Shown piece after piece: positions 24,803 to 28,951 of a stretch of 33,678 nt of DNA. The position numbers were made by a program, and so were the translations under genes. The first letter of the stretch is position 1, and every line of letters begins with the position of its first letter. The stretch lies in the NCBI GenBank assembly GCA_903915665.1, contig CAIWTT010000166.1, forward strand, positions 1-33,678, given 5' to 3'. Source of the stretch: an uncultured Archangium sp. GTDB lineage: Bacteria > Myxococcota > Myxococcia > Myxococcales > Myxococcaceae. The notes beneath the pieces are model-generated. The model was given only the letters and a program-made list of their open reading frames with translations, searched no databases and was not told where the DNA came from.

Positions 24803-27800
24803 TCAGCCTCGCGCACACAGGGCGATGAGCTCCGCGCCCGAGTCCTTCACCACCTTGGGCCCCAGCCCCTGCACCGCGCGCAGCGCCTGGGCAGTGGTGG
24901 GCCTCGCCTCGGCCACGGCCACCAGGGCGCGGTTGGTGAGCACGCGGAAGGCCGGCACCCGCCGTCGCCGCGACTCTTCGAGGCGCCAGGCGCGCAGCCG
25001 CTCCACCAGCCCGGCGTTCGCCCCGCTCGAGGGCAGCTCGACTGCGGGCAGGCTCGATTCCCTTCGCGCGCGGCGCTTCTTCTTCGGGGCCGCGCCGCGG
25101 GTGCTGCGCTCGGGCGCGGGGCGGCTCGTCGGCGTCAGCCGCGCGCGCTGCGGGTCGGCCTTCCCCACCACGTACAGCCGGTGAAAGGGGATGCGCTTGC
25201 CATCCTTCTCGAACGAGTCTTCTTCCACGCGCAGCTGCCCCGCGCGCACCAGTCCACCCACCAGGCGCTCGAACTTCGGCCGCGCCTCGGGGGCCTCGCC
25301 CAGCACCTCGCGACACAGCCGGCCGCTGGCCTGGCCGGGGCTCGCGGCCAGGCGCGCGAGGAGCTCGGACATCACCCCCAGCTCGGCTGACGTGGGCGCC
25401 TCGAAGAGCGCGGCGATGCACGCGGTGGGCGCGCACACGTCGCACAGGCCACACGTTTCCCCGGAGTCGGCCTGGTCGCCGAAGTGCTGCACCAGCGACA
25501 ACATGCGGCAGCGGTGCCCCTCGGCGAAGCGGCCCATGAGCGCGAGCTGCTCGACCCGCTGCGCGCGCTGGGCCTCGTAGGGCGCCTGCCACGCGTCGTG
25601 GCCCTTGATCAGCTGGTCTTCGGTGACGCCACCCACGCCGCCGTGGATCCACAACTTCTCCAGGGCCTTCTCGAAGTCGTCGACCTTCACGCGCGTGCGG
25701 CGGCGCAGGGCCTCGGCGTCTTGCGGCGTGTCGTCCAGCGCCCGGGCCAACTTGGCGAGCACCGCGGCGTCGGGGTAGTCGCGCTCGAGGAAGAACTCGT
25801 GCGTCTTGCGGTCGACGAAGTGGTGCATCAGCACCGCGCGCGAGGGCTGGCCGTCGCGGCCGGCGCGGCCGATCTCCTGGTAGTAGCCCTCGACGCTGCC
25901 GGGCAGGGCGAGGTGGATGACGGTCCGCACGTCGGCCTTGTCGACGCCCATGCCGAAGGCCACCGTGGCCACCACCACGTCGAGCTTGCCGGAGAGGAAC
26001 GCGGTCTGGGTCGAGTCGCGCTCCTCGGTGGAGAGGCCCGCGTGGTACGGCGCGGCGCGCATGCGGCTGGAGAGCAGGTCGGCGGTGGCCTCGGCGGTCT
26101 TGCGCGTGGCGGCGTAGACGATGGCCGGCAGCCGGCCCTTGCGCAGCAGCCACTCCAGGGTGCGCTCGGCCCGCTCCCTGGGCAGCACCTCGAGGGCCTC
26201 GATGGCGAGGTTGTGGCGCCGGAAGCCGTGGATGAACTGCTTGCTGGAGGTGCCGAGGCTCAGCTGGGCGACGATGTCCTGCTGCACGCGCGGGGTGGCG
26301 GTGGCGGTCAGGGCCATCACCGGGGCGGGGCGCAGCGAGGGCAGGCGGGCGCCGAGCAGCCGGTAGTCGGGGCGGAAGTCGTGGCCCCACTGCGAGATGC
26401 AGTGCGCCTCGTCGATGGCCACCAGCGAGGGCGTGCGCTTGGCGAGCAGCTCGGGGAAGCCGGGGACACCGAGGCGCTCGGGGGCGATGAAGAGGTAGTC
26501 GAGGGTGCCGGCGAGGTAGTCGGCGCACACCCGGCGGGACTCGAGGCGCGCGCGGCCCGAGTGGATGCGCTCGGCGCGCAGGCCCAGGGCCTGGAGCCGG
26601 GTGACCTGGTCTTCCATCAACGCGATGAGCGGGCTGATGACGAGGGTGGTGCCGCCGCGGGCGAGGCCGGGGAGCTGGTAGCACAGCGACTTGCCGGCGC
26701 CGGTGGGCATGACGAGCAGCACGTCCTTGCCGGCGATGACGGCCTCGCAGGCCTCGCGCTGGTGGGGGCGGAAGGAGGCGTGACCGAAGCGCGAGAGCAT
26801 CTGCGTCGCCGTCCCTCCCTCGCCCTGCGCGAGCGGGGAGAGGGCCGGGGTGAGGGGCCGAACCGGACGCCCTGGCGCAACCACTGCCGTCCCTCCCTCG
26901 CCCTGCGGGAGCGGGGAGAGGGCCGGGGTGAGGGGCCGAACTGGCCGCCCAGGCCCCAACACTGCCGCCGTACTTCCCGACGTCGCAGCGGTTCCTCGTG
27001 ACGCCGCGGTGCTCATCGCAGCCGAGGAGTTCGCCGCAGTCCTCGCCGACGCACTCGCGACATACGCGCTGCGCCCGCCCGCCCCCGGAGGCCCACCCAT
27101 GGGCGTGGGCGGCGTGGTGCGGATGCGCCCGATGACCGACTCCACATACCGCTCAATTCCCGCGAGGAACTCGGGCAGCTCGCCCTGGCCCTTGGCGATG
27201 CGCTGGAGCCGCGCTTCCCACCCCCCGGTCATGGCCGCGCTCTTCACCTCGGCATCGACGACTTCAATGAGCCCGATGCCCTTGTCGGTGGCGACCAGCG
27301 TCTTGCCCTCCCGCTGCACGTACGCGCGGGTGAGCAACGTCTCGATGATGTTGGCGCGGGTGGCGGGCGTGCCCAGGCCGTTCTCCTTCATCGCCTCTGA
27401 CAGTTCGCGTTCATCGAGGGTCTTGCCGGCGGTCTCCATGGCGGTGAGCAGGGTGGCGTCGTTGAGCCGCGCGGGAGGCCTGGTGCGCTTGGGCACCGCC
27501 TTCGCCTCGAGCACCTGCTGTGGCTGTCCGCGCTCGAGCCCCGACGGCAGCATCCCCTCGTCGTCGGCCTCTTCCCCCGGCGCGCGCTTCTTCTCGGACG
27601 GCGCCTTCACCGGCCCGACGTCGAGCACCTTCCACCCCTCCTGCTCGATGGCCGTGCCGTGGCTGCGGTACCGGTCCACCACGGAAGGGGTGGTCACCTC
27701 GGTCACCACCTCGGTCGCGGCCCAGGTGAAGTCGTCATGCCAGGCCTGCAGCAACCGGCGGCAGATGAGCTCGTACACCCGGCGTTCATCGGCGCTCAGC

Positions 27801-28951
27801 GAGCGCGCACCGGCCGCGATGGCGGTGGGGATGATGGCGTGGTGATCCGAGACCTGCGCGTCGTCGACGAAGCGTTTCCCCAGCGGCCGTTCGCCAGTCC
27901 CCGGGGCGAGCTGCGCCTCGAACGGCCCCCGGATGGCCTTGACGATGGGCCCCAGCGTGGCCGCCACGTCCGCCGAGAGGTGCCGGCTGTCGGTGCGCGG
28001 GTAGCTGATCAGCTTGTGTTGCTCGTACAGCGCCTGGGCCAGCTCGAGGGTGCGCTGGGCCGAGTAGCCGTAGAGCCGGTTGGTGTGTCGCTGCAGCTCG
28101 GTCAGGTCGTAGAGCAGCGGCGCGGGGAGCTTCTTCTGCTTCGAGGTGACGGAGGCAATCTTCGCCTTCCCCGACTTCGCGCGCGCGACGATGGCCTGCG
28201 CCTCCTCACCCGACGCGGGCAGGCGCCGCGGGTGCTCGCCGGGACCTTCGCGGTGCCAGGTGCCCGGGTAGCTCGCCCCGTCGCGCGGGGAGAACGTGGC
28301 CACCACCTCGAGGTAGTCCTCGGGCTTGAAGTCGCGAATGGCGAGCTCGCGCTCGACGATGAGCGCCAGGGTCGGGGTCTGCACGCGGCCCACCGAGAGC
28401 TGCGAGTCGAGCGCCAGCCCGTAGGCCCGCGAGAGGTTCATGCCCACCAACCAGTCGGCGCGGCTGCGACCCAGGGCGGCGGCGGCGAGGCCATCGAAGT
28501 CCCGCTGGGGGCGCAGCCTGTCGAACCCATCGCGAATGGCGCCGTCGGTCAGCGAGGAGATCCACAGCCGCTTCACCGGCCTGCGGCACTCCGCGGCCTC
28601 GTAGATGAAGCGGAAGATGAGCTCGCCTTCGCGCCCGGCGTCGGTGGCGCAGATGACCTCGCTCACGTCCTTCCCGCGCAAGGCCCGGCGCACCACCTCG
28701 AACTGCGCGCGGGTCTGCTCGAAGACGCGCAGGGGCCACGTCCCGGGGAACATGGGGAGCGTGTCGAAGCTCCAGCGGCGCCAGCGGGGGTCGATGCCCT
28801 CGGGTTCTTCGAGGCCGACCAGGTGACCGATGGCCCAGGTGACCACGTAGCCGTTGCCCGAGAGCGAGCCTTCCCCACGCGTGGTCGCGCCCAGCACCCG
28901 GGCCAGGTCTCGTGCGACGGAGGGCTTCTCGGCGACGACGACGACGGTCAC
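24803..28951 (-). CDS. DNA topoisomerase III (type IA) fused in one reading frame to RecQ helicase (helicase + RQC + HRDC)
   Basis: The GTG at 28951 gives MTVVVVAEKPSVARDL (E. coli TopB has MRLFIAEKPSLARAI). The TOPRIM and Topo IA cores follow (GYVVTWAIGHLV, DAGREGELIF, SVGRVQTPTLALIVERE, LISYPRTDSR). There is a 100-aa P/A/S/T/G linker with a 26-aa tandem repeat. RecQ then begins at the internal ATG at 26800: FRPHQREACEAVIAGKDVLLVMPTGAGKSLCYQLP, DEAHCISQWGHDFRPDY, ATVAFGMGVDKADVRTVIH, QEIGRAGRDG, a Zn/RQC Cys cluster, and the C-terminal HRDC RVPAFRVLTNRALVAVAE. There is no stop codon anywhere between the two modules. Confidence 0.6.
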   Translation of the reverse strand: MTVVVVAEKPSVARDLARVLGATTRGEGSLSGNGYVVTWAIGHLVGLEEPEGIDPRWRRWSFDTLPMFPGTWPLRVFEQTRAQFEVVRRALRGKDVSEVICATDAGREGELIFRFIYEAAECRRPVKRLWISSLTDGAIRDGFDRLRPQRDFDGLAAAALGRSRADWLVGMNLSRAYGLALDSQLSVGRVQTPTLALIVERELAIRDFKPEDYLEVVATFSPRDGASYPGTWHREGPGEHPRRLPASGEEAQAIVARAKSGKAKIASVTSKQKKLPAPLLYDLTELQRHTNRLYGYSAQRTLELAQALYEQHKLISYPRTDSRHLSADVAATLGPIVKAIRGPFEAQLAPGTGERPLGKRFVDDAQVSDHHAIIPTAIAAGARSLSADERRVYELICRRLLQAWHDDFTWAATEVVTEVTTPSVVDRYRSHGTAIEQEGWKVLDVGPVKAPSEKKRAPGEEADDEGMLPSGLERGQPQQVLEAKAVPKRTRPPARLNDATLLTAMETAGKTLDERELSEAMKENGLGTPATRANIIETLLTRAYVQREGKTLVATDKGIGLIEVVDAEVKSAAMTGGWEARLQRIAKGQGELPEFLAGIERYVESVIGRIRTTPPTPMGGPPGAGGRSAYVASASARTAANSSAAMSTAASRGTAATSGSTAAVLGPGRPVRPLTPALSPLPQGEGGTAVVAPGRPVRPLTPALSPLAQGEGGTATQMLSRFGHASFRPHQREACEAVIAGKDVLLVMPTGAGKSLCYQLPGLARGGTTLVISPLIALMEDQVTRLQALGLRAERIHSGRARLESRRVCADYLAGTLDYLFIAPERLGVPGFPELLAKRTPSLVAIDEAHCISQWGHDFRPDYRLLGARLPSLRPAPVMALTATATPRVQQDIVAQLSLGTSSKQFIHGFRRHNLAIEALEVLPRERAERTLEWLLRKGRLPAIVYAATRKTAEATADLLSSRMRAAPYHAGLSTEERDSTQTAFLSGKLDVVVATVAFGMGVDKADVRTVIHLALPGSVEGYYQEIGRAGRDGQPSRAVLMHHFVDRKTHEFFLERDYPDAAVLAKLARALDDTPQDAEALRRRTRVKVDDFEKALEKLWIHGGVGGVTEDQLIKGHDAWQAPYEAQRAQRVEQLALMGRFAEGHRCRMLSLVQHFGDQADSGETCGLCDVCAPTACIAALFEAPTSAELGVMSELLARLAASPGQASGRLCREVLGEAPEARPKFERLVGGLVRAGQLRVEEDSFEKDGKRIPFHRLYVVGKADPQRARLTPTSRPAPERSTRGAAPKKKRRARRESSLPAVELPSSGANAGLVERLRAWRLEESRRRRVPAFRVLTNRALVAVAEARPTTAQALRAVQGLGPKVVKDSGAELIALCARG
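26808..26963. repeat. 78-nt tandem direct repeat x2 in the TopoIII-RecQ linker
   Basis: The unit gccgtccctccctcgccctgcg(c/g)gagcggggagagggccggggtgaggggccgaac... starts at 26808 and 26886. It encodes GRPVRPLTPALSPL(P/A)QGEGGTA in the sense frame, and the period is a multiple of 3. Confidence 0.8.

Follow-up and report, generated by a model that had tools for sequence, protein, structure and literature searches.

One frame for topoisomerase III and RecQ

The DNA considered here (the window) is positions 1 to 33,678 of contig CAIWTT010000166.1 from an uncultured Archangium sp. (assembly GCA_903915665.1), and the element of interest is a minus-strand open reading frame (ORF) between positions 24803 and 28951. 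We consider it probable that this ORF encodes a genuine single polypeptide joining topoisomerase III (Topo III) to a RecQ-family helicase, and that it is a chromosomal gene belonging to a large family in Myxococcota and Acidobacteriota. A sequence-only reading had described one uninterrupted 1382-codon frame at this site without giving its strand; the ORF listing returned the same frame, on the minus strand, with a GTG start, a product of 1382 amino acids (aa) and zero internal stops. The predicted N-terminus (MTVVVVAEKPS) agrees with the consensus of the homologs (MTIAVVAEKPS), and a Shine-Dalgarno-like GAAGGG lies 5-6 nt upstream of the start codon. The product consists of a Topo III core, a linker of 105 aa and, from residue 718 to residue 1382, the RecQ-family helicase (Table 1). 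AlphaFold2 models were obtained for two constructs, one of residues 1-1178 (both modules and the linker) and one of residues 701-1382 (the RecQ half).

The N-terminal module passes both of the curated TopB cutoffs, scoring 660.3 bits with NCBIfam PRK07726 (cutoff 597) and 572.3 bits with TIGR01056 topB (cutoff 515.75), and the Topo I models score far below their cutoffs. Among the Pfam domains, Toprim scores 45.5 bits and Topoisom_bac (PF01131) 351.6 bits over profile positions 4-410 of 411. The module aligns with residues 4-629 of Escherichia coli Topo III (E = 7e-90), and the predicted local distance difference test score (pLDDT) of the Topo core is mostly above 85. The TopB-like type IA topoisomerase proposed earlier at residues ~1-610 is borne out by the Pfam and curated TopB models, which set the core at 1-612. 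The catalytic tyrosine Y317 is invariant (121/121 fused proteins), as are Toprim E8 and the TDAGREGE motif in the alignment of 121. A defective Toprim site, with D-A-G in place of the D-P-D of E. coli, was entertained and rejected, D-A-G being standard in Bacillus-type TopB: B. thuringiensis TopB has VATDAGREGE, and 'AG' occurs in 52 of 58 free TopB representatives. Residues 498-520 of E. coli Topo III pair with residues 501-527 of the window protein, the alignment being interrupted by one gap of one residue, and pLDDT falls to 61-71 there; the segment corresponds to the region of the Topo III 'decatenation loop', reported at E. coli residues ~502-519 (Li et al. 2000).

VATDAGREGE in Toprim and YPRTDSR around the active-site tyrosine are common to the fused family and Bacillus-type TopB, and the topB product of B. 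thuringiensis pLUSID2 (729 aa) is ~47% identical to the fused protein over the first 320 residues. The two diverge toward the C-terminus: free Bacillus TopB carries Cys4 zinc ribbons after about residue 610, whereas in the fused proteins the linker and RecQ occupy this place and the ribbons are missing. By these comparisons the N-terminal half corresponds to domains I-IV of a TopB of the Bacillus type, with the C-terminal Cys4 zinc ribbons replaced.

In the C-terminal module the helicase motifs (motif 0, Walker A MPTGAGKS at 748, DEAHC at 847 and motif VI GRAGRDG at 1028) are invariant in 121/121. The module passes the family model TIGR00614 recQ_fam with 377.9 bits (cutoff 219.8) and does not reach the cutoff of the canonical recQ equivalog TIGR01389 (461.4 bits versus 640.2). 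It matches the PDB RecQ structure 1OYW with E = 1e-87 and aligns globally with canonical gamma-proteobacterial RecQ (hhalign probability 100%), from which an insertion of ~72 aa between helicase lobe 2 and the zinc hairpin is missing, appearing as a gap in the hhalign alignment. AlphaFold2 folds the insertion as helices at 1045-1102 and a strand at 1114-1116 (pLDDT ~83-95). It was found in 112/112 members of this RecQ clade, fused or free, and is thus a trait of the clade and not an adaptation to fusion; by these alignments the RecQ half is judged to belong to a distinct RecQ clade that carries the insertion. The inserted sequence is strongly conserved, for example in DRKTHEFF.ERDYP...EKLW.HGG.

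The four zinc cysteines (Cys1148, 1167, 1170 and 1173) are all invariant in the fused family; over both modules, the catalytic motifs and these cysteines are invariant, or almost so, in 120-121 of the fused proteins aligned. No match to the Pfam RQC winged helix was obtained in the window protein or in any of 240 homologs. The AlphaFold2 model of 701-1382 (pLDDT 84.8) comprises the helicase core, the insertion, the zinc hairpin, a predicted winged helix, a disordered basic stretch ahead of HRDC (1283-1301, pLDDT <50) and HRDC itself. Its top PDB matches are BLM (4CDG, E = 7e-34; 4CGZ; ~1e-33) and bacterial RecQ cores, and compared with RecQ cores including zinc and winged-helix subdomains it gives template modelling (TM) scores of 0.69-0.71 (1OYW 0.69). 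The sequence-only reading had called the RecQ complete, with helicase, RQC and HRDC; the helicase and HRDC stand on Pfam matches, and the RQC, which has none, is seen only in the AlphaFold2 model.

Table 1. Features of the fused gene, with residues of the 1382-aa product and positions in the window
Feature	Residues	Position	Strand	Evidence or remark
Whole fused ORF	1-1382	24803..28951	-	1382 codons + stop; GTG at 28951, stop codon 24803-24805
Topo III (TopB-type type IA) core	1-612	27116..28951	-	Pfam Toprim (4-133) + Topoisom_bac (153-596)
Codon of catalytic tyrosine Y317, SYPRTDSR motif	317	28001..28003	-	lines up with E. coli Topo III ITYPRSDCR
Inter-module linker	613-717	26801..27115	-	low-complexity P/A/G/T/S, predicted disordered
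Two tandem 78-nt (26-codon) units, 91% identical		26808..26963	-	decayed hairpin repeat CCCTCACCCCGGCCCTCTCCCC ... GGGCGAGGGAGGG in each
ATG of Met718, candidate internal start	718	26798..26800	-	at start of RecQ module
RecQ superfamily 2 (SF2) helicase core	718-1044	25820..26800	-	Pfam DEAD (728-891) + Helicase_C (937-1034)
Conserved ~72-aa insertion	1045-1116	25604..25819	-	between helicase lobe 2 and zinc hairpin
RecQ zinc-binding subdomain	1117-1175	25427..25603	-	Pfam PF16124 RecQ_Zn_bind (1125-1173), 32.3 bits (cutoff 25)
Predicted winged helix (RQC-type)	1188-1261	25169..25390	-	AlphaFold2: three helices + beta-hairpin, high pLDDT
HRDC	1313-1380	24812..25015	-	Pfam PF00570 (1314-1378), 64.1 bits; AlphaFold2 helices 1313-1380

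The linker, its hairpin repeat and Met718

The linker had been described as ~100 aa rich in Pro/Ala/Ser/Thr/Gly and without a stop, a description that agrees with its 105 aa and with a content of 73% P/A/S/T/G (counted over residues 612-717). In AlphaFold2, residues 621-712 have pLDDT ~30. The model of residues 1-1178 renders both modules with confidence (mean pLDDT 85), while its predicted TM score (pTM) is only 0.51; together with the low pLDDT of the linker, this is what two folded units joined by a flexible tether, and free of any set orientation to each other, would give. No chain covering both a Topo and a RecQ module was found in the PDB.

The genome has 72% G+C and the window ~71%, and many spurious ORFs of several hundred codons each overlap the gene. 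From the stop density in the gene's own off-frames, the chance of 106 open codons is P = 0.14-0.63, so that because of the high G+C a linker free of stops is weak evidence when taken alone and comparative data are needed. These show that the linkers of 121 fused homologs range from 27 to 297 aa (median 91), have no sequence in common and are always in frame. G+C at codon positions 1/2/3 is 0.72/0.79/0.78 in the linker, 0.70/0.49/0.93 in the Topo module and 0.74/0.51/0.96 in the RecQ module.

Part of the window's linker is a 78-nt tandem duplication, owing to which the peptide ...PLTPALSPL[P/A]QGEGGTA is present twice; PLTPALSPLPQGEGGTAVVAPGR is an example of a peptide within this linker. The 22-mer CCCTCACCCCGGCCCTCTCCCC occurs in at least 120 metagenome contigs, where the complementary arm GGGGAGAGGG follows it, and its unrelated flanks (AT-rich ones too) together with this second arm mark it as a widespread short hairpin repeat of high G+C content. 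The linker of the closest homolog (protein P0001, locus L081) holds two intact copies, one of them at the same site before RecQ, and similar peptides (…LSP..GEG.GEG… or …PHP.PLP.GEGE…) are found in several other Myxococcota linkers. On comparison of these sequences, the linker of the window is taken to be a recent variant, in which the lineage appears to have acquired the hairpin repeat in frame before this genome duplicated the 78-nt unit. As an observation in its own right, the hairpin repeat, CCCTCACCCCGGCCCTCTCCCC-loop-GGGGAGAGGG, sits in frame inside a protein linker both in the window and in the closest homolog; the repeat was noted at loci L084-L163 as well. The fold energy of the 78-nt repeat was no different from that of shuffles (z -0.8 to +0.7), and Rfam at gathering thresholds returned nothing in the window.

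The ATG of Met718 raises the question of whether the one ORF yields two proteins, with free RecQ arising by initiation at this codon or by proteolysis of the linker, and fusion being only a convenience of transcription or translation. The codon stands right at the start of RecQ, as the sequence-only reading had pointed out in placing it at 26800, and has a GGAGG 13 nt upstream that derives from the hairpin repeat; the linker is moreover long, disordered and accessible to proteases, and RecQs of the same clade are viable unfused. Against such a scheme, the position is Leu in 117 of 121 homologs, so that internal initiation is not the mode of the family and, as a family feature, the internal start was rejected. 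The earlier suggestion thus holds for the location of the ATG and is not supported as a route to free RecQ. Met718 falls within the motif-0 helix of RecQ, and its product would miss an N-terminal turn that is conserved as L-x-x-L-L in the relatives. The duplication extends to residue 715 and T-A-T-Q-M replaces the conserved L-x-x-L-L at the start of the RecQ helix, a replacement accompanying the duplication that accounts for the origin of Met718. No promoter-like or terminator-like site was found in 24300-29400, and the fused relatives listed all keep one frame despite linker turnover and a tenfold range of linker length, which is hard to explain if the covalent link is worthless. Two separate products from this ORF are therefore regarded as unlikely, and a single polypeptide remains the preferred reading.

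Distribution of the fused architecture

The sequence-only reading had proposed a database search for orthologs with the same fused architecture, and at least 240 clusters (90% identity) with the Topo-then-RecQ order were found, in Myxococcota, Acidobacteriota and one Oligoflexus metagenome-assembled genome (MAG). With the window protein as query against 5.8 billion proteins, 120 clusters at 90% identity were listed; all 120 carry Toprim, Topoisom_bac, DEAD, Helicase_C and RecQ_Zn_bind, and 119 also carry HRDC. These relatives are 1242-1601 aa long, the best among the matches listed is 80% identical, and the sources, where named, are Myxococcaceae, Archangium, Polyangiaceae and 'Myxococcales' MAGs. 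When an Acidobacteriota member served as the query, another 120 clusters were listed, every one with the Topo and RecQ sets and 119 with the full six domains. Among them is the UniRef entry of the cultured Solibacter usitatus Ellin6076, a fused protein of 1333 aa. Ten species-representative genome loci, from Bryobacterales, Solibacteraceae, Terriglobia, Thermoanaerobaculia, Polyangiaceae, the Oligoflexus MAG and an unclassified proteobacterial MAG, have a single uninterrupted ORF with both modules. A third search covered 1.84 billion 50%-identity representatives, and among the best 150 examined from ~41 (by motif) to 64 (by hidden Markov model, fragments included) were fused; the order was Topo-then-RecQ in 41/41 checked, at identities down to 37-41%.

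These data bear directly on the prospect that the fusion is an artefact, a missed stop, frameshift or chimeric assembly having joined two adjacent genes. The contig does come from a metagenome assembly, its junction holds a tandem repeat of a kind prone to assembly error, and a stop-free linker is not improbable by chance at this G+C content. Yet hundreds of assemblies made independently, and the genome of one isolate, show the architecture, the closest homolog is fused through a different linker, and the exact 1382-aa product is recorded on two or more contigs assembled from an ENA metagenome. An artefact is accordingly judged exceedingly improbable, and as an explanation of the architecture it is all but refuted; the remaining doubt concerns whether the repeat has one unit or two. 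The proposal of a true covalent fusion and not a missed stop is upheld, in that orthologous loci are not uniformly split. The same architecture across hundreds of relatives, with invariant catalytic motifs, argues that the fusion is real, under selection and no product of assembly; it is the conservation of the fused architecture elsewhere, as judged from these comparisons, that lifts the observation above chance.

Several points weigh on the other side. The codon-position G+C of the linker is atypical of well-adapted coding sequence, and AlphaFold2, with the pTM given above, does not place the Topo and RecQ modules confidently relative to each other. The homolog lists were ranked by score, which favours fused proteins, and it can therefore not be claimed that all relatives are fused. 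At three loci of Acidobacteriota or a 'proteobacterium' the Topo and RecQ modules are adjacent but in different frames, the split falling at 7800-8100 in L008, 7700-8100 in L012 and 7800-8300 in L034; sequencing error is the likelier cause of these splits, because the three share one nanopore MAG project as their source and the RecQ part of L034 is broken by a further frameshift. The clade also includes unfused RecQs, and the Polyangiaceae MAG JAVTWR01 has a fused and a free RecQ together (L004 and L022), the free one ~52% identical to the RecQ half of the window; fusion is thus not obligatory for this type of RecQ and is no simple replacement of the free helicase. In an unrooted neighbour-joining tree of 112 RecQ halves the topology is star-like with fused and unfused proteins interleaved, where many of the 'unfused' metagenome proteins may be fragments.

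A Muribaculaceae (Bacteroidota) MAG (L030) carries separate topB (6001-7767) and recQ (10741-11760) homologs on the same strand, ~3 kb apart, and could represent an unfused neighbourhood version of the pair. In M. xanthus a RecQ (MXAN_1950), which may be fused or free, has been seen by proteomics (PMC12288472).

Genomic context, proposed function and known systems

The context of the gene in the window is that of an ordinary chromosome, with a pentapeptide-repeat protein, hypothetical genes, a histidine kinase, an FHA protein and others, and the neighbours in relatives include a cytochrome bd oxidase, PriA and other unrelated genes. No conserved gene neighbourhood was found around the fused genes, and no RMI1-like partner was seen in the neighbourhood of the window gene. 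The adjacent gene, 59 nt upstream at 29011-32016 (-), encodes a protein of 1001 aa that begins with a long stretch rich in Cys and carries pentapeptide repeats toward its C-terminus, and is also called on the database contig. Elsewhere in the window, a 748-aa ORF at 8659-10902 (+) matches Pfam MVP_shoulder (the shoulder domain of Major Vault Protein, 103 bits) and Vault_3 and is apparently a bacterial relative of the protein that forms the shell of eukaryotic vaults. A 161-aa stretch at 18699-19181 (+) with a strong T2SSE (type II/IV secretion ATPase) match lies in another frame and overlaps the N-terminal part of a 732-aa ORF with Response_reg and EAL (18248-20443, +); this overlap may reflect a frameshift, a pseudogene or an assembly error.

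The neighbourhood also bears on a possible role in anti-phage defence, as the helicase DpdF of the Dpd 7-deazaguanine modification/restriction system or as a related component. The PADLOC model PDLC02865, labelled 'DpdF', matches the window protein over nearly its whole length with 1682 bits (protein residues 3-1298, profile positions 26-1331 out of 1499), several further DpdF and PsyrT models match the RecQ half, and DpdF is itself a RecQ-family SF2 helicase (PMC10925250). However, the protein reaches 211.9 bits with NF041063, the NCBIfam equivalog for DpdF, where the cutoff is 550, none of the 12 neighbouring proteins within ~18 kb has a PADLOC match (0/12), TGT and ParB-like Pfam domains were likewise not found among these 12, and the neighbourhoods of the relatives consist of unrelated housekeeping genes. 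The PADLOC DpdF sub-models (610-611 positions) match over ~380 positions, indicating that the model set catches RecQ-family helicases broadly. With no Dpd partners and a score short of the equivalog cutoff, membership in a defence system was rejected, and a defence function is considered very unlikely. The nearly end-to-end match of PDLC02865 means that the PADLOC library already has a profile of this architecture; its 'DpdF' label reflects homology to RecQ-family helicases and not system membership. It seems that what this model describes is fused proteins of the housekeeping type, and annotating with it could mislabel such proteins as 'DpdF'.

The functional partnership of RecQ and Topo III has been established in E. 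coli (Harmon 1999; Suski & Marians 2008, as cited in PMC8185306 and PMC2647321), and strand passage likewise for the eukaryotic BLM/Sgs1-Top3 complexes, as cited in PMC8185306, PMC2647321 and PMC7245102. By analogy with this partnership, the fused protein is most likely a genome-maintenance enzyme for tethered RecQ/Topo III strand passage, in decatenation and dissolution. RecQ would load on forked or branched DNA and unwind it in the 3'-5' direction, making the single-stranded DNA that the type IA enzyme requires, while the tether would hold Topo III at very high local concentration at the site of RecQ. Strand passage might in this way be coupled to unwinding, with converging forks and precatenanes unlinked and hemicatenanes and double Holliday junctions dissolved without crossovers. 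A separate recruitment step, whether through zinc ribbons that bind single-stranded DNA or through SSB- or RMI1-like mediators, could then be dispensable; judging by the architecture, the tether would substitute for both the zinc ribbons of TopB and the mediator proteins. A 'dissolvasome' activity, that is, ATP-dependent dissolution of double Holliday junctions or decatenation, we infer from the known partnership of RecQ and Topo III.

The tether may also confer a new property, that of a processive and self-sufficient bacterial dissolvase or decatenase acting without an SSB- or RMI1-type mediator, or else of a machine that uses ATP to pass strands in one direction, the functional counterpart of reverse gyrase in mesophiles with the modules in inverted order. 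In either form it would have replaced the DNA-binding zinc-ribbon domain of free TopB in two major soil phyla. This we offer tentatively, as a somewhat doubtful extension.

Reverse gyrase, which is specific to thermophiles, has a degenerate SF2 helicase module without the RecQ accessory domains. Its helicase-like module is N-terminal to the Topo IA module and the fused family has the opposite order, the mirror image that the sequence-only reading had noted and that was seen in every fused representative checked. An emergent activity of the reverse gyrase kind, in which the fused protein would drive an ATP-dependent directional change of linking number (supercoiling) in place of dissolution, draws on the same kinds of module, an SF2 helicase and a Topo IA, and on the reported effect of RecQ and Topo III on plasmid topology, their cooperation being said to result 'in negative DNA supercoiling' (PMC7245102). 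Besides the reversed order, it is opposed by a score of 101.3 bits with the reverse gyrase model TIGR01054, far below the cutoff of 471.7, by the full RecQ with zinc, predicted winged-helix and HRDC elements in place of the minimal latch-bearing helicase of reverse gyrase, by a disordered tether of 27-297 aa and not a rigid interface, and by the hosts, which are a soil isolate and MAGs from the environment and include no known thermophile. Supercoiling as the activity of the family is thus quite unlikely, and tethered strand passage remains the favoured function.

Compared with the E. coli pair, the fused protein has the same two enzyme families and the same expected chemistry, in which RecQ makes single-stranded DNA and Topo III passes strands. 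It differs in uniting in one polypeptide what is separate there, in having a TopB of the Bacillus type (PRK07726), and in a RecQ that falls below the recQ equivalog cutoff and has the extra ~72 aa relative to E. coli and canonical RecQ. The eukaryotic dissolvasome (BLM-TOP3A-RMI1/2; Sgs1-Top3-Rmi1) is similar in that a RecQ-family helicase with zinc and HRDC elements, and in the window protein a predicted winged helix, is physically coupled to a Topo III-type enzyme; its coupling is non-covalent, through the N-terminus of the helicase and the RMI1 OB-fold, whereas in the fused family a covalent disordered tether runs from the C-terminus of Topo to the N-terminus of RecQ.

In the literature searched, reverse gyrase is the sole fusion of a helicase with Topo IA that is discussed (PMC7245102, PMC2647321, PMC10969213). 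A 2020 PNAS paper states that hyperthermophiles 'uniquely' fused the two units, as reverse gyrase (PMC7245102); the fusions listed in a 2009 phylogenomic survey are reverse gyrase, Topo V and Topo IIA only (PMC2647321); and RecQ goes unmentioned in a 2024 review of how the domains of type IA enzymes vary across the tree of life (PMC10969213). No description of a Topo III-RecQ fusion was found in PubMed Central and bioRxiv, a scope outside which most subscription-journal papers lie, so that a prior mention is possible. The fusion thus makes a known partnership covalent; it is real, occurs widely and is undescribed in the literature searched. Public automatic names for the proteins are 'DNA topoisomerase 3', 'ATP-dependent DNA helicase RecQ' (UniProt A0A2W5UWP3 and the S. 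usitatus entry) and the PADLOC 'DpdF'; each of these either conceals one of the two halves or points to a function in defence, which constitutes an annotation problem.

RecQ helicases and Topo III-type enzymes cooperate from bacteria to humans (BLM-TOP3A), and what is known of the physical coupling between unwinding and strand passage still comes for the most part from reverse gyrase and from eukaryotic complexes of several subunits. With a single-chain Topo III-RecQ, this coupling could be studied structurally and at the single-molecule level in a minimal system of defined stoichiometry, and the occurrence of the fusion in a culturable bacterium, Solibacter usitatus, places it in an organism that can be grown. 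The family would be a counter-example to the view of reverse gyrase as the unique fusion of a helicase with Topo IA, and would provide textbook 'Rosetta-stone' evidence that the bacterial RecQ/Topo III pair acts as a unit.

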